64,000 nucleotides of DNA from an uncultured Solirubrobacterales bacterium (lineage in GTDB: Bacteria; Actinomycetota; Thermoleophilia; Solirubrobacterales; Solirubrobacteraceae). The stretch lies in contig CAWJOL010000005.1 in the NCBI GenBank assembly GCA_963844475.1, forward strand, positions 40,805-104,804, written 5' to 3'. Below are positions 12,994 to 61,396 of this stretch, in pieces. A program made the position numbers and the translations under genes. The first letter of the stretch is position 1, and every line of letters begins with the position of its first letter. Below the pieces are notes generated by a model. It was not told the DNA's origin. It did no database searches and worked only from the letters and a program-made list of their open reading frames with translations.

Positions 12994-13977
12994 TCAGGAC
13001 CCCTTCTTCGCCTTGATCGCGTCAGTCAGCTTGGGCAGGATCTTGTTCAGATCGCCCACGATGCCGAGATCCGAGAACTCGAAGATCGGTGCGTTCGCGT
13101 CCTTGTTGATCGCGACGATGTTCTCCGAGGACTGCATCCCGACCTTGTGCTGGATGGCGCCGGAGATCCCGGCCGCGAGGTACAGCTTGGGCGAGACGGT
13201 CTTGCCGGTCTGACCGATCTGCGCCGCATACGGGTACCAGCCGGCGTCGACCACCGCGCGGGTGGCCGCCACGGCGGCGTTGCCGCCGAACGCTCCGGCC
13301 AGCGCCTCAGCCAGCTCGAAGCCTTCGGCTTTACCCAGCCCGCGGCCACCGGCCACGAGGATGTCGGCACCTTCGATGTCGACATCGGCGCCGCGCTGCT
13401 CACCGCGCTGGACCATGCTGGCCTTGGTCGACCAGGGCGAGAGGTCGACGTCGACGTCGACCACTTCGGCCGAGCCGCCATCGCGCTGCACGCTCTCGAA
13501 CGCGTTGATGCGCCCGATGATGATCCCGAGATCGCCCCGGTACCGGGACACGGAGATCTTCGAGTCCTGCAGGATCGGCCGCTCGGCGACGAGCTTGCCG
13601 TCCTCGGCCCGCACCGCGGTTACCTCCATCGTCACACCGGCGTGCTTGCGGGCGGCCAGTCCGGCACCGATTTCGAAGCCGAGCAGACCACCGCCGAACA
13701 GGGCGTAGGCATGACCGTGATCGTCGATCACCTTGGCCATCACGTCGACGATCGGCTGCGCCAGGCCTTCAGGACCGCGGCCGCGGAACACCTTGGTGGC
13801 GCCGTAGGCACCGACCGACTGACACAGCTCGTCGGTCAGGTCGTCGCCACCGACCACGACGGCATGACACTCGCCGCCGATCTCCGCCGCGCGCGCGGCC
13901 CCCTCGGACACAGCGCCGAGCGAGTTCTTGTTGAGCTCGCCCTCGTAGTGAAGTACGTAGGTAAGGACGTCGGCCAT
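12994..13977 (-). CDS. etfA: ETF alpha subunit
   Basis: [29 protein letters not shown]. Confidence 0.97.
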
Positions 13978-56016: not shown

Positions 56017-57158
56017 GCGTCGCCCAGCTGCTGGAGGGAAAGCGCGTCTGCGTCTGCGCAGGCTCCGGGGGTGTCGGCAAGACCACGACCTCCGCAGCCA
56101 TCGCGCTGGGCATGGCGGCCCGGGGAGCCAGGGTTGCCGTGGTGACGATCGACCCGGCGCGCCGGCTGGCCAACGCGCTGGGGCTGGGAGAGCTGGAGAA
56201 CGAACCGACCCGGGTGGCGCCCGAGCGCCTGGCCGAGGGCGGCCTGACCGTGAAGGGCGAGCTGTGGGCGATGATGCTGGATCCCAAGCGGACCTTCGAC
56301 GAGTTGATCGACCGAGTGGCGCCCACGGCCGAGCGCGCGGCGGAGATCAAGGCGAACCGTGTCTACAGCGAGCTCTCGACGGCCGTCTCCGGATCGCAGG
56401 AGTTCACGGCCATCGCCAAGCTCTACGAGCTCGACCGCGAGGGCGACTTCGATCTGCTGGTCCTGGACACCCCGCCGTCTCGCAACGCGCTGGATTTCCT
56501 CGACGCACCAGGCCGGCTTACCTCGTTCCTGGACGGACGGGCGCTGAAGACGTTCATCCGCCCCACCGGATTCGGGATGCGCGTGCTCGGACGGGGCGCG
56601 GCTCCGCTGCTCGCGGCGCTGCGACGGATCACCGGCATCGATCTGGTCAACGATCTGACCACCTTCTTCGGTCTGCTCGGGGACATGACCGAGGACTTCA
56701 GCCGCCGGGCGGTGCAGGTCGAGAAGATGCTTCACGCCGACACCAGCGCTTTCCTGATCGTCACCTCAGCGCAGACCGGTCCGGTCGAGGAGGCGGTCTG
56801 GTTCGGCCGCACGCTGGAGCAGAGCGGGCTTCCGTTCGCGGGCGCGATCGTCAACCGGGTCCATCACGACATGCTCGGGGACAGCGAGCCGGAAGACGTC
56901 GAGTCCGAGCTGGCCGAGACGCTGGGGCCGGCGCTCGCCGCCCGGGTGACGGGAAACTTCTGCGATTACCACGTGCTGGCTCGGCGTGATGAGCGGAACG
57001 TGCGCCGCCTGCGCGAGGAGCTGGGCGGCCGGCCGCTCCTGCTGGTCCCCCAATTCGACGACGATGTCCACGACGTCGAAGGACTGTTGCGGATCCATCG
57101 GTATCTGTTCGCCAGCCAGCGCCAGCGTGACCGAATGATCGCCGACGTGGTGGCCTAG
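56013..57158 (+). CDS. ArsA/Get3-family ATPase (Rv3680-like)
   Basis: GSGGVGKTTT, TIDPARRLA, LDTPPSRNALDFLDAP. Confidence 0.93.
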   Translation: MSVAQLLEGKRVCVCAGSGGVGKTTTSAAIALGMAARGARVAVVTIDPARRLANALGLGELENEPTRVAPERLAEGGLTVKGELWAMMLDPKRTFDELIDRVAPTAERAAEIKANRVYSELSTAVSGSQEFTAIAKLYELDREGDFDLLVLDTPPSRNALDFLDAPGRLTSFLDGRALKTFIRPTGFGMRVLGRGAAPLLAALRRITGIDLVNDLTTFFGLLGDMTEDFSRRAVQVEKMLHADTSAFLIVTSAQTGPVEEAVWFGRTLEQSGLPFAGAIVNRVHHDMLGDSEPEDVESELAETLGPALAARVTGNFCDYHVLARRDERNVRRLREELGGRPLLLVPQFDDDVHDVEGLLRIHRYLFASQRQRDRMIADVVA

Positions 57159-57778
57159 GTGCCGGCCTCGTCCGTGGCGGCGGCCTCGGCCGCCAGCACC
57201 CGGATCCTCAGCGCGGCCTCGTCCGGCCCGTCGGCGCTCCAATTCGCCCACGCGAGCAACTCGCGACGCCACTGATCCTCGGCCACCGGGGCCCGCACTC
57301 CAGCCCGGTCGCTGATCAGGCCGATGCGCCGCTCGTGCAGGAGCTCCCAGACCGCCTGCTCAGCCAGCGCCAGGCACTCGCTGGCCCGCAGCTGCGGCCA
57401 GCGCTCCGCGGCGTGGCTCGGCAGCGCTGAGAGGCGCAGCGGCGCCTCGGTAGACCGCTCCATGGCGGTGGCCTTTAGCGTCTGCAGCGGCTGCCCTCCC
57501 CGCGCGATCTGATCCTGCTCGGCCAGAACGCGCGCGGTGACCTCCTCGCCCGAGCGCGCGGCGTTGGCCCAGCCCCGGCCCATCCCGATCTCGTCGGGGC
57601 GCAGCTCAGGTCCCTCGTAGACCGCCAGCTTGGCGCGGTCCGGCGCCCATTTGCGATCCGACCAGTCGATCGTCTCGCCCGCCACCCAGGGCTGCAGAAA
57701 ACCAGCCCGCAGCTGTTCCTCGGTCAGGTTGAACGCCCGGGCGGAATGAAGTGACTGCCGCAACTCGAGATGAAACAC
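57155..57778 (-). CDS. Hypothetical protein
   Basis: 207-aa ORF with natural composition; no family recognised. Confidence 0.65.
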   Translation of the reverse strand: MFHLELRQSLHSARAFNLTEEQLRAGFLQPWVAGETIDWSDRKWAPDRAKLAVYEGPELRPDEIGMGRGWANAARSGEEVTARVLAEQDQIARGGQPLQTLKATAMERSTEAPLRLSALPSHAAERWPQLRASECLALAEQAVWELLHERRIGLISDRAGVRAPVAEDQWRRELLAWANWSADGPDEAALRIRVLAAEAAATDEAGT

Positions 57779-57959: not shown

Positions 57960-58331
57960 TCAGAGAGCCAGCCCGAGCCGGCTTCCGGCCCAGGCCAGCA
58001 CGACGCCGCCGATCAGGCTGACGACCAGGTTGATCGCGGCGAGTCCCGGGCGCCGCTGCTCAGCCAGTCGATGTGTCTCGTACATCCATGTGCTGAAGGT
58101 GGTGAATCCGCCGATTAGACCCGTTCCGAGCAGCCGGTTCGCGCTGGTGCCGAGACTCAGACCAGCCAGCAGGCCGAGGAGGAAGGCGCCCGAGAGGTTG
58201 ACCACCAGCGTCCCCACCGGGAATCCCCGTGTCCGGGCGGCCATGCCGGCGGCCACGCCGTCCAGCAACACGCGGCCGGCTGCCCCCGCTCCCCCGGCCA
58301 GGCCCACGGCCACGAGCATCGGCGCGCTCAC
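57960..58331 (-). CDS. crcB: Fluoride channel Fluc/CrcB
   Basis: [20 protein letters not shown]. Confidence 0.93.
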
Positions 58332-58723
58332 GGGCGGAGCACCCTCGGGCGGCCGAGGCGAGCGGCCGAGGCGACGGCCAGATATCCCAGCGCGATGCTG
58401 CTCAGCGCGTAGGCCAGCGCCAACCCGACCCGGTCGTGGTCGAGCATGCGCAGGAGCTCGACCTGCATGGTCGAGAACGTCGTCAAACCACCGCAGAACC
58501 CGGCGCCGAGCAGGGAACGCCGATAGGGCGGTGGCGGGCGACGCGCCCGCAGGCGAGCAACCAGCAGGCCCAGCAGGAACGCGCCGACCAGGTTGACGGC
58601 AAACGTCGCCCACGGCCACCGGCCCGGGCTCGCTGCCCACGCGTCGCCCAGACCAGCCCGCGCCGCCGAGCCGATGGCCCCGCCGGCGAAAACCGCCGCG
58701 AGCTCCCGAGGGTCGGGGCGCAC
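58328..58723 (-). CDS. crcB: Fluoride channel Fluc/CrcB
   Basis: [20 protein letters not shown]. Confidence 0.93.
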
Positions 58724-58738
58724 GAGCCGCCCTACGCC

Positions 58739-59251
58739 TCAGTCGCGGCGATCGCCCTGATCTCGGTAGCGGCGGCGGGCCTCCTCGATCGCCGCCAGCG
58801 CCTTCGCCCGGTCGCCCCAGCCCCGAACCGTCGATTGGCGGTCGGGATCCAGGTCCTTGTAGACGGCGAAGAAATGGGATATCTCCTGGCGCAGCGGGTC
58901 GGGCAGATCCTCAATATCGTTCAGCGCGTCCCAGCCGGGATCGTTCAACGGAACGCAGAGGACCGTGTCGTCGACCCCCTTCTCGTCCTCCATCTCGAAC
59001 AAGCCCACGGGCCGCGCGGGAACGATACAACCCGGAAAGGTCGGCTCGGACAGGCAGACCAACACATCGAGCGCGTCGCCGTCGAGCGCCAGGGTGTCGG
59101 GAATGAACCCGTAGTCGGCCGGATACACCACCGAAGGCATCAGGTAGCGGTCAAGCTTGATCGCGCCCAGCTTCGGGTCGTACTCGTACTTGTTGCGGCT
59201 GCCCTTGGGGATCTCGACGATGCAGATCAGACCGTCGCCGGTCGTGGCCAT
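58739..59251 (-). CDS. ppa: Inorganic pyrophosphatase (family I)
   Basis: EIPKGSRNKYE, YGFIPDT, DGDALD, FFAVYKDL. Confidence 0.95.
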   Translation of the reverse strand: MATTGDGLICIVEIPKGSRNKYEYDPKLGAIKLDRYLMPSVVYPADYGFIPDTLALDGDALDVLVCLSEPTFPGCIVPARPVGLFEMEDEKGVDDTVLCVPLNDPGWDALNDIEDLPDPLRQEISHFFAVYKDLDPDRQSTVRGWGDRAKALAAIEEARRRYRDQGDRRD

Positions 59252-59263
59252 GGCCGGTTGCGC

Positions 59264-59578
59264 TCAGTTCATCTCGCCGCGCGAGACCGCCAGACAGGCC
59301 TCGCAGTGGGGCCACGGCGGGTTCCACGGATACCCGGTGACGTCGCGCCCGCACAGGGCCGTGTCGGGATCCTGCTCGGTGACCAGATGGCAGAGCTCCT
59401 CGAACCCGTTCTCATCGCGTCGGGGCCGGTTCAGGCAATCGGGGTGGACGGCCGGCGAGCGCGCCGGCGCGGCCGCGCGGTGAGAGCGAGACGCGCTCAG
59501 ATGCGGCGCAGAAGCTGGATTAGAAGGTGACACCACGCTGCTCGAGCCAGCTTGCCACTCGCGGGGGCGGATGTCCAT
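59264..59578 (-). CDS. Small Cys/His protein, DUF3039-like putative Zn site; start uncertain
   Basis: CHL...ALCG...HCEAC pattern. Confidence 0.5.
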   Translation of the reverse strand: MDIRPREWQAGSSSVVSPSNPASAPHLSASRSHRAAAPARSPAVHPDCLNRPRRDENGFEELCHLVTEQDPDTALCGRDVTGYPWNPPWPHCEACLAVSRGEMN

Positions 59579-59882
59579 CGTATTCGGCCCGTGCCGCGAG
59601 TCGCAGCAGCTCGGTCGCGTTGGCGTCGACCTCGTCGCGACGGTAGGCCAGGTAGACGATGATCGCGCACGCCATCAGGAACGGGGGATCGTCATCCTCA
59701 TCGCGGGGCCCAAACATCAGGTCAAGGCGCGTCTCCATGTCCTCGATCGCGCGGATTGGCTCGTCGTCATCCTCGAGGCGGGCCAGCAGGTCGTCCAGCG
59801 CCTCGCTGGTGCCGTCATCGCAGGCCTCGACAGCGCGGTGCACCACTTCGGAGACGGTGACGGGTGCGGGTTCAGTGGGCAT
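59520..59882 (-). CDS. Acidic hypothetical protein
   Basis: 120-aa ORF; YLAYRRDE...LAARAEYDG. Confidence 0.7.
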   Translation of the reverse strand: MPTEPAPVTVSEVVHRAVEACDDGTSEALDDLLARLEDDDEPIRAIEDMETRLDLMFGPRDEDDDPPFLMACAIIVYLAYRRDEVDANATELLRLAARAEYDGHPPPRVASWLEQRGVTF

Positions 59883-59915: not shown

Positions 59916-59950
59916 AGAAACAGGTCGAGCGGGCACAAAGGCCCGCTCGA
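59916..59950 (-). terminator. Intrinsic terminator-like hairpin
   Basis: TCGAGCGGGC-CTTTGT-GCCCGCTCGA followed by CCTGTTTCT. Confidence 0.7.
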
Positions 59951-60061
59951 GTGACTGCGATCGCGCTCCCTCTAACTTCACTACGAGCCCCAGGACTTAC
60001 ATGTTGTGCCTGGCGGCAAAACACTCCCAGCCCCCGAAGGGACCGAGTAGGGAGCGGTCGC
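59916..60061 (-). ncRNA. Candidate stand-alone structured small RNA (~146 nt)
   Basis: TAGGCT -10 at 60067-60072; 3-way junction with cUUCGg loop; 10-bp terminator hairpin. Confidence 0.6.
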
Positions 60062-60115
60062 GAGCAAGCCTAGCGAGCGCGCCTAAAGCGTCGACGCCGC
60101 GCGGCCTAAGCCCAG

Positions 60116-61396
60116 CTAGCCGGCGACGGTGACGCTCACGGCCTGAGCGAGCAGATCGTCGGCCACGCGGCGCAGGTCGGCGTCGAGGTGACCGCAGAGG
60201 ACGTCCCTGAGCAGCGCGCGCAAATGCTCCGAGAGTTCCTCGACGAGTCCGTTGGCCCCCGGGCCGGCGGCAGCAAGCCCCGAGATCACCGCTCGCTCGA
60301 GCGAGATTGCGTGGGCGGTGCGTTCAGCCAGGGCGACCCGCCCCTCCGGGGGCGCACACAGGACGGCCAGGCGCTGGGCCAGGCGACCGCTGCCCGGACC
60401 TTCGGGCTCGAGCAGCGCCCGCAGGGCCAGCAGATGGTCGGTCAGGGCCTCAAACGGCGCCAGCCGCTCGCACCCCAGCTCAAACCGCCCCAGCGCCCAT
60501 GCCACCTCACCGTTGGTCGGGGTGCGCCGGGCAACCAGGTTGCAGAAGGCGCGGAGCTCGTCCTCATGTCCTGCGCCGATCAGCGTGACCAGCCGCGGCC
60601 GACCGCTGCCACCCAGCGCGACCGACCGCCAGGCGCCCGCGTCCGTGCGGGTCCAGGCCAGTGGGCCGAGCGCGTATCCGCCGCGCTCGAACAGCCGCAG
60701 GGCGGTCAGGACCCGCCGAAAACGCGCGCGGGCCAGTGACACCGGCGAGGGCGCCGGGCGCTCCTGTCCCACGCTCAGCACGAGCAGCACATTCGGCTCC
60801 TCGCCTCCCTCGCCGGCGGGGCTGGAGGACCCCCACACCGCTTCGGACGGAGCGTCCTCGAGCGTTTCCCCGCGAACCAGCGACAACCCGTCTCCGAGCA
60901 CGAGCTCTCTGGTGCCGGGATCCAGCGAAATGCCCAGCAGCGGGGCGATCACGGTGGTCAGGTAGCGACCGTCATAGAGAGCCCGCTCGAGCTCCTCGTA
61001 GGCCAGCTCGAATCGCTCCGGGTCGAAACCGAACTCGCTGCGCTCGGCGAACACCCCGGCCAAAAACGATCGTAGGGCCGCGTCGGCCCGCTCGCGCGGG
61101 GGCACGGGGATGCGACGCTCCCCGCGCTGCTGGAGGTAGGCCTCGACTCCGTCCAGGGCGACGAGTCCGTGCGCCGCCGGCGCGTAGCTCGGCAGCGCGG
61201 AAAGAAGGCCCAGGCGCTCGCGGATGAACGCGCCGGTGAGCGGCCGGTAGCAATACAGCGGCACGCGGCCGGGACGGCCTTCGGCCTCGGTTAGCTCAAA
61301 CGGGATCTCGGCTCCGCCGGCCGTCTCCTCGGCCAGGCAACCCGCGGCGTCGACCGCGAAGGCCTCGAGCGCGTCATGAAGGGACAGATTCCGCAC
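60116..61396 (-). CDS. Hypothetical protein with a degenerate Apea-like HEPN C-terminal domain
   Basis: ALGRF...ER...LTDHLLALRALL...RLAQRLAVL...SLERAVISG. Confidence 0.6.
   Translation of the reverse strand: MRNLSLHDALEAFAVDAAGCLAEETAGGAEIPFELTEAEGRPGRVPLYCYRPLTGAFIRERLGLLSALPSYAPAAHGLVALDGVEAYLQQRGERRIPVPPRERADAALRSFLAGVFAERSEFGFDPERFELAYEELERALYDGRYLTTVIAPLLGISLDPGTRELVLGDGLSLVRGETLEDAPSEAVWGSSSPAGEGGEEPNVLLVLSVGQERPAPSPVSLARARFRRVLTALRLFERGGYALGPLAWTRTDAGAWRSVALGGSGRPRLVTLIGAGHEDELRAFCNLVARRTPTNGEVAWALGRFELGCERLAPFEALTDHLLALRALLEPEGPGSGRLAQRLAVLCAPPEGRVALAERTAHAISLERAVISGLAAAGPGANGLVEELSEHLRALLRDVLCGHLDADLRRVADDLLAQAVSVTVAG

Follow-up and report, generated by a model that had tools for sequence, protein, structure and literature searches.

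A gene for a structured non-coding RNA was analysed in a 64,000-nt stretch of DNA, here called the window, from an uncultured Solirubrobacterales bacterium (GenBank assembly GCA_963844475.1, contig CAWJOL010000005.1, positions 40,805 to 104,804). The part flagged by a first-pass annotation, positions 59916 to 60072, was confirmed as a real single-copy gene; it has a promoter and a terminator of its own, and its product is a tightly folded non-coding RNA. It probably stands alone as a gene, and the RNA, small, compact and pseudoknotted, would represent a new family that is confined to the Solirubrobacteraceae and works in trans. Support for the family is good: over 130 distinct sequences, two covariance models, a pseudoknot that was verified, a conserved promoter and an arm that is modular, with three size classes. 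It can now be curated for Rfam and studied experimentally in cultured Patulibacter strains. In kind, it joins the orphan structured non-coding RNAs already known from bacteria, among which it is a new family. The Solirubrobacteraceae, actinobacteria that abound in soil, are known almost entirely from metagenome bins, and literature searches returned no non-coding RNA described for them.

Anatomy and covariation of the RNA

The window belongs to a metagenome-assembled genome (G000) that is 75.6% complete. The RNA gene is housed in the gap between the end of a gene for a 426-amino acid (aa) protein (60116) and the start of a 120-aa open reading frame (ORF; 59882). Both neighbours and all RNA features given below are on the minus strand. 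The -10 box TAGGCT, already read by the first-pass annotation, lies at 60072-60067; it is of the TANNNT type and has a conserved CGC just 5' of it. The predicted transcript (59916-60059), a short form of ~145 nt, consists of a ~101-nt folded core, a linker, a terminator hairpin and a U-rich tail, and scored 130.5 bits under R1, the covariance model of the short form.

The core is closed by the stem P1, in which GACCGCUCCCU (60049-60059) pairs with AGGGAGCGCGAUC (59959-59971), two bases of the latter being bulged. Its pairing CGCUCCC/GGGAGCG is extended here to 60059-60049 with 59971-59959. The P2 hairpin, CUCGGUCCC-UUCG-GGGGCUGGG (60026-60047), is the variable module, and it is here that the long form of the RNA carries extra branches. 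The linker between P2 and P3 holds GUGUU (60020-60024), which forms five base pairs with AACAU (60001-60005); this pseudoknot is an addition to the earlier description. AACAU is part of the 17-nt loop of the P3 hairpin CGCCAGG/CCUGGGG (59988-60015), whose arm GCC-G-CCAGG/CCUGG-GGC (60015-60009 with 59994-59988) encloses CACAACAUGUAAGU. P3 is followed by J3/1 (59972-59987), a 16-nt AU-rich and purine-rich single strand, CUCGUAGUGAAGUUAG, which stayed unpaired in every model and had been read earlier as an unpaired segment UCGUAGUGAAGUUAG at about 59987-59972. The gene ends with an intrinsic terminator (59916-59950), which has a perfect GC-rich 10-bp stem (59950-59941 with 59934-59925), a 6-nt loop and the tail CCUGUUUCU. 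A terminator scan independently reported this 10-bp hairpin, at 59950-59925.

The closing stem, the hairpin with the cUUCGg tip, the second arm and the unpaired segment of the first-pass annotation were thus all found in place. The UUCG tetraloop itself, present here, was limited to this genome and its nearest relative, and the tip of P2 varied freely elsewhere. The AU content, which had been called unusual, was so only in part: the P3 loop and J3/1 (G+C 0.486) were the sole markedly AU-rich part, whereas the core was only mildly low (0.614, compared with a window mean of 0.694; 7th percentile among 101-nt windows). The minimum free energy was -74.9 kcal/mol, against -60.5 ± 4.0 kcal/mol for shuffled sequences (z = -3.56), and none of 200 shuffles was as good.

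Conservation with compensatory changes is far stronger evidence than the fold energy of a single sequence. In the short-form alignment (A2, 22 sequences, pairs counted per cell), 95.8% of the cells paired, compared with at most 55% in slid controls. Eight pairs had changed on both sides, and 0 of 500 shuffles reached any of these measures; the significance in this and the following shuffle test is overstated, because related genomes are not independent. Changes were seen in P1 at pairs 2:111 (GC 12, AU 9, GU 1) and 11:100 (UG, CG or UA), and in P2, where three of nine pairs had changed on both sides (for pair 20:32, CG 14, UA 5, UG 2 and GC 1). Terminator pair 123:147 was CG in 19 sequences, AU in two and UG in one, and the terminator loop varied freely.

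The long forms gave a similar picture. In their model-guided alignment (A6, 73 distinct sequences), which was fitted to the model and hence is biased towards structure, 97.5% of the cells paired, and 22 of the 34 pairs had changed on both sides (9/15 in P1, 6/7 in the outer part of P2 and 6/6 in P2a), with none of 500 shuffles reaching the observed values. P1, outer P2 and P2a were also recovered independently by RNAalifold on a plain MAFFT alignment, and the terminator stem sequence covaried as well. P3 was invariant in A6 except for one sequence at one pair. Alignments A3-A6 hold one row (L093) from the unpublished genome G025; no conclusion rests on unpublished genomes.

The pseudoknot, a tertiary pairing of a linker with a loop and not of two loops, is formed by GUGUY in the linker and RACAY in the P3 loop. 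Its fifth pair was UA in 11, CG in seven and UG in three sequences of A2, and across 116 distinct sequences of both forms it was C-G in 79, U-A in 21 and U-G in six, with ten non-pairs. The latter count was made with a motif-anchored script, because in the long forms MAFFT did not align the P3 loop (or the terminator) correctly. Together with P3, whose CCAGG/CCUGG was invariant across all copies, it makes a classical H-type pseudoknot within a three-way junction closed by P1. A G-G mismatch in P3 (pair 52:82 of A2) was replaced by G-C or A-U in two short forms and by C-G in the long form. In J3/1, the length and a GUAG/AGU flavour were conserved while the exact sequence changed. Compensatory changes therefore support P1, P2, the pseudoknot and the terminator.

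The promoter was conserved in both forms. In the short form, TANNNT ended 7-9 nt upstream of the conserved 5' end in all 64 distinct upstream regions. In the long form it ended 3-6 nt upstream of the model start in 73 of 73, compared with 1/73 and 0/73 at control offsets. The commonest version was CGCTAGCCT. TANNNT is the -10 consensus of the principal sigma factor of Actinobacteria. No -35 element stood out in the upstream regions, and a generic sigma-70 scan for TTGACA/TATAAT hexamers reported no promoter. A 3' hairpin with covarying pairs followed the core in the copies aligned; a clear U tract was missing from many long forms, and terminators of this kind are common in Actinobacteria. Judged from these upstream regions, the RNA appears to have a conserved promoter of its own at a fixed distance, as a stand-alone small RNA gene does, and a terminator or 3' hairpin directly after the core, also a mark of such genes, was observed.

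The RNA matched no known family. A cmscan search of the whole window against Rfam 15 (4227 families) gave nothing at gathering score. With E-values up to 10, the best matches of the 401-nt region around the gene were PhotoRC-I (16.4 bits, cut-off 45) and HTT-AS1_3 (17.9 bits, cut-off 70), both at chance level, and three long-form loci had no Rfam match at E up to 1. With no Rfam match at gathering or permissive thresholds, TANNNT in all 137 copies examined and a fold backed by covariation, the view of the first-pass annotation that this is an uncharacterised structured RNA was borne out. Neither Rfam nor the searchable literature yielded a description of the RNA; searches on RNA motifs in Conexibacter or Solirubrobacter and one 2024 survey of non-coding RNAs gave nothing relevant.

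Several specific candidates were rejected. ARAGORN found no tRNA or tmRNA in the window. The RNAs of the signal recognition particle (RF00169, 61-65 bits) and of RNase P (RF00010, 190-246 bits) were found elsewhere in the window genome and in four other genomes of the family. The 6S RNA was rejected because the new RNA folds into a multi-branch structure with a pseudoknot, not into a rod of ~180-200 nt with a central bubble, and its short form has ~101 nt. The 6S model RF00013 gave nothing in five family genomes, four of them at least 93% complete, this locus included; its silence tells little, because it also failed on nine of 14 control genomes. A bacterial Y RNA was rejected, as its Ro60/TROVE partner protein (PF05731), normally encoded beside such an RNA, was not found in five family genomes. 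A hidden small ORF was rejected too: AUG-UAA in the P3 loop of this genome and GGUGAUCC-AUG in P1 of some long forms were unconserved, and indels shifted the frames. Resemblances, noted by eye, to the 16S rRNA 3' end, the sarcin-ricin loop, RNase P CR-I and 5S rRNA found no tool support and were judged coincidental.

Short and long forms across the family

When the intergenic region was searched with BLAST against 36 genomes of the same genus, 21 had one copy each, at 73-91% identity. Conservation began abruptly at the -10 box/G60059 and stopped past the terminator, and neither flank could be aligned. Exactly one copy was found by model R1 in 109 of 151 genus genomes, a count that takes in the unpublished genomes G066 and G025. 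Of these copies, 98 had scores above 100 bits, and the other 11 reached 37-45 bits; E-values of R1 and of the second model, R2, are only rough. In more than 100 genomes, the element was kept with compensatory changes while both flanks diverged freely.

The weak R1 matches proved to be the long form. They keep the core motifs GGGAGUGUC, CCCAGGCA, GACAC, AGUCCUGGGAC and GUAGU. Their P1 is of different sequence (GGAUCGCC/GGYGAUCC plus GUCC/GGGC), and their P2 has ~60 additional nt in extra branches. They also occupy other genome positions than the short-form copies. A pattern scan of a collection of genomes from 185,579 species found the long form mainly in records of Solirubrobacteraceae, Solirubrobacterales, Conexibacter, Paraconexibacteraceae, Patulibacter medicamentivorans and P. 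minatonensis; organism names in this distribution come from record titles. The copies of P. minatonensis DSM 18081 and P. medicamentivorans I11 are at L188:1802-1959 (minus strand of that locus) and L126:481-643, respectively. Chance matches from other phyla were rejected by the covariance model, and those printed had no ACAY pseudoknot partner in the loop.

R2 was built from 65 long forms. It detected one copy in 106 of 143 high-quality family genomes, covering 29 of 37 genera, and uncovered the long form in three of the four high-quality genus genomes that were blank under R1. Outside the family, within the class Thermoleophilia, the only R2 matches were two of 31-32 bits in other families, which lacked the pseudoknot/P3 core and were taken as false. 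Second matches in the genomes G197, G434 and G495 were partial, and those in G197 and G495 were at contig ends. Both forms together were found in no genome searched. Most genera carry the long form, of 155-175 nt; the window carries the short form. Without the terminator, match lengths fell into three size classes (~105-115, 131-133 and 155-190 nt), which identifies P2 as a modular arm.

Gene context and mode of action

The first-pass annotation had offered, as an alternative, a terminating leader for the genes downstream in the window, two hypothetical ORFs followed by ppa and crcB. This reading found no support on comparison. The downstream gene set was not conserved with the RNA: even among short forms it could be a small ORF with ppa, a gene for a 207-aa protein, a 500-aa ORF or convergent genes of 445-687 aa. 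The next downstream gene was convergent in 52 of the 69 long-form loci where one could be called, and 11 of the 39 short-form loci also had a convergent neighbour. Between 25 and 28 long-form loci were flanked by a divergent gene for the 606-aa LepA (EF4) and a convergent gene for the 566-aa MurJ, according to neighbour clustering and Pfam. In Patulibacter, the neighbours were ligA and a convergent D-Ala-D-Ala carboxypeptidase gene (dacB), and elsewhere a convergent gene for a major facilitator superfamily transporter. The lepA, murJ, ligA and dacB examples were confirmed by Pfam. A leader role cannot apply where the RNA runs up against the 3' end of a convergent gene, and the unrelated neighbourhoods, together with the frequent convergent gene, argue for a stand-alone RNA gene. 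A leader should have a co-directional gene directly downstream in essentially all its representatives, and across the 69 long-form and 39 short-form loci this was not so.

In the spacer between murJ and lepA (L157:3080-6992, L118:2626-6555 and ~25 other loci), the RNA is antisense to both genes, which are co-directional on the opposite strand. Its promoter there is back-to-back with the upstream region of lepA.

The invariant nucleotides cluster in and around the pseudoknot, the sequence of the P2 arm and J3/1 is variable, and there is no fixed protein-coding neighbour. In the preferred reading, a stand-alone RNA working in trans, transcription would start from the housekeeping-type TANNNT box a few bases before the long stem P1. 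P1 encloses the variable arm P2 and the H-type pseudoknot, formed by GUGUY of the linker with RACAY in the loop of the invariant CCAGG/CCUGG stem. J3/1, the AU-rich single strand, closes the junction, and the GC-rich hairpin would end the transcript. The RNA would be stable, with P1 and the 3' hairpin perhaps shielding its ends, and its invariant, mostly unpaired core (GAGUGUY, CCAGGC, ACAY, AGUCCUGGG) may serve as a pocket that binds a conserved cellular partner, be it a protein or a small molecule. RNAs with so many invariant unpaired bases have often proved to be ligand sensors, ribozymes or the cores of ribonucleoproteins, and a partner is therefore worth seeking. More specifically, though this is put forward only tentatively, the RNA could be a new class of free-standing aptamer, whose pseudoknot pocket binds a metabolite or a conserved protein and relays or buffers the signal in trans. 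A precedent is EutX/Rli55, reportedly a riboswitch-containing small RNA that sequesters a regulator. If this were true, the Solirubrobacteraceae would have a housekeeping riboregulator of their own, without a counterpart described in other bacteria.

Some observations weigh against a stand-alone RNA working in trans. No convincing copy was found in five genera of the family, even in sensitive-mode searches, which makes the RNA dispensable or replaceable. A co-directional gene followed within a few hundred bases in 28 of the 39 short-form loci, the window included. In the window, the gap between the hairpin and the next start codon is 43 nt, and no separate promoter was seen in it. A leader role in these genomes is therefore possible. 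Because the gap is so short, some read-through of the terminator into the ppa-crcB operon may also occur in this genome, where it would be incidental. Neighbouring genes were called with a crude self-made ORF finder and a codon-position G+C filter. Finally, the view that the RNA acts in trans, most likely through its invariant pseudoknot core by binding a protein or a small molecule, is drawn from anatomy only.

The main rival is base-pairing through J3/1, with the core as a scaffold and J3/1 or the free part of the P3 loop as a seed for mRNAs whose translation or decay would be steered. A unit running from promoter to terminator is the usual anatomy of trans-encoded small RNAs, and J3/1, with 14-16 nt, a very high AU content for this genome and no pairing in any model, would be suited as a specific seed. 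A site complementary at 14 of 16 positions lies at 13942-13957 (minus strand), ~20 nt inside the start of an ORF (12994-13977, minus strand); it is the only near-perfect J3/1 complement in the genome and may well be a chance match. We consider this rival unlikely. It is weakened by the poor conservation of J3/1, which ranks with the most variable parts of the RNA although a seed is normally what such an RNA conserves best, and by a lack of enrichment, as J3/1 had 11 complements with up to three mismatches in the window genome, compared with 29 for a reversed control. The invariant nucleotides lie in the pseudoknot core instead, and Actinobacteria are not known to have Hfq or ProQ. A cis-acting leader, in which the fold would act as an aptamer for a ligand such as fluoride or pyrophosphate and the hairpin as a terminator platform for the small ORFs, ppa and crcB, is a good deal less probable. 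It would suit the window, where the RNA ends just ahead of a co-directional operon with ppa and two crcB genes, the classic cargo of fluoride riboswitches, where the canonical fluoride riboswitch was not found in the 75.6% complete genome, and where the pseudoknot core with its invariant unpaired bases looks aptamer-like. Read by eye, CCGCUC of the P1 5' strand could also pair with GAGCGG of the terminator 5' arm in short forms. In the long forms the terminator covaries freely while P1 shows no matching changes, and a conserved antiterminator may not be needed. P1 is very stable (11 bp in short forms, 15 bp in long forms), and its length speaks against a switch, as the P1 stems of ligand-gated riboswitches are generally much shorter. 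The RNA usually faces a convergent gene, as at lepA/murJ, and its downstream genes differ even among short forms. The genus, moreover, already uses the canonical fluoride riboswitch RF01734, with 1-14 copies in 80 of 151 genomes (a count that takes in the unpublished genome G155), and the closest relative (G032) has it ~1.2 kb downstream of the RNA, with ppa on one side and crcB on the other. A novel fluoride or pyrophosphate riboswitch was rejected on the variable context and the presence of RF01734, and this tempting but wrong annotation upstream of ppa-crcB is thereby removed.

The two other rivals are less probable still. A functional analogue of 6S or Ms1, a housekeeping RNA of high abundance and a ligand of RNA polymerase in a lineage without detectable 6S, would agree with the blank RF00013 searches of five family genomes, and with an RNA that is single-copy, widely kept and equipped with a conserved housekeeping-type -10 box. 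Such an analogue is improbable, given the multi-branch junction with a pseudoknot in place of a long rod and a size of 110-175 nt, with the short form far below that of 6S; the silence of the 6S model says little when nine of 14 controls were also missed. The least probable rival is a catalytic RNA, a self-cleaving or other ribozyme. The compact pseudoknotted core with its many invariant unpaired nucleotides would fit, but no Rfam ribozyme family was matched, and the RNA is a single copy per genome with its own promoter and terminator and has no association with repeats, mobile elements or particular genes. The arrangement of P1, P2, H-type pseudoknot and J3/1 also appears unlike that of HDV-like, twister, pistol, hatchet and hammerhead ribozymes, which were tested for through Rfam.

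Among known systems, the raiA motif and the orphan 'ornate' non-coding RNAs share with the new RNA stand-alone transcription, an intricate covarying and pseudoknotted fold, invariant unpaired nucleotides and an unassigned function, and they are likewise kept across a bacterial lineage that includes Actinobacteria. The new RNA differs by its smaller size (110-175 nt), its restriction to one family of the Thermoleophilia, its modular P2 arm (short, intermediate or long) and the absence of an Rfam match. The fluoride riboswitch RF01734 is also a small H-type pseudoknot RNA, and here, too, ppa and crcB are downstream and a terminator hairpin follows the fold. However, the new RNA is two to three times larger, has a long P1, is not matched by the model and mostly has no co-directional downstream gene. 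With 6C, Ms1 and 6S it shares a chromosomal, single-copy and lineage-wide occurrence with its own promoter and terminator. 6C consists of two hairpins with C-rich loops, the length of Ms1 is ~300 nt, and 6S has a rod shape interrupted by a central bubble; these features are absent from the new RNA, which gave no Rfam match to any of them. The SAM-II, preQ1-II and guanidine-III riboswitches have the same S1-L1-S2-L2-S1'-L3-S2' topology; invariant loop bases and a purine-rich L3 that is conserved (GUAAGU or AAAAGU) go with it. They are cis elements of 35-80 nt directly upstream of the genes they regulate, whereas the new RNA is free-standing, and its pseudoknot sits in a three-way (or larger) junction closed by a stem of 11-15 bp, again with no Rfam match.

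Neighbouring genes and fluoride riboswitches

The upstream neighbour, the 426-aa protein gene (60116-61396, minus strand), had no Pfam or NCBIfam match and is a constant neighbour of the short form. By tblastn, it was present upstream of the RNA in 20 of the 21 BLAST relatives and in nearly all further short-form loci. The protein was 55-87% identical across the genus, and its gene was, with few exceptions, immediately upstream of the short-form RNA.

The downstream neighbours (57960-59882, minus strand) are the 120-aa ORF, a small ORF with four cysteines, ppa, crcB1 and crcB2, of which ppa and both crcB genes were identified by Pfam and NCBIfam. The four-cysteine ORF (59264-59578, minus strand) had no match in either database. 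Its C-terminal 57 aa, with the motif CH...LCG...HCEAC, were found with ~80% identity upstream of ppa in many relatives; from its sequence, the product may be a small zinc-binding protein linked to ppa. A conserved hypothetical protein of 207 aa without family match is encoded at 57155-57778 (minus strand), and in relatives its gene often comes directly after ppa or the RNA.

The two crcB genes (58328-58723 and 57960 to ~58310, minus strand) adjoin and follow ppa without an intergenic gap. In the closest relative, a canonical RF01734 occupies this place between ppa and crcB (G032:C7:367675-367741), and no RF01734 match was found in the window or in the whole of its genome. The fluoride riboswitch thus seems to have been lost in the window genome, and crcB to have become part of the ppa operon by fusion. 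Elsewhere in the genus, some genomes have 10-14 canonical fluoride riboswitches, many of them within 40-80 kb, and so hold unusually dense fluoride-responsive units; examples are G069:C12:252687-289123, G125:C6:647186-728358 and contigs C4, C48 and C53 of G111.

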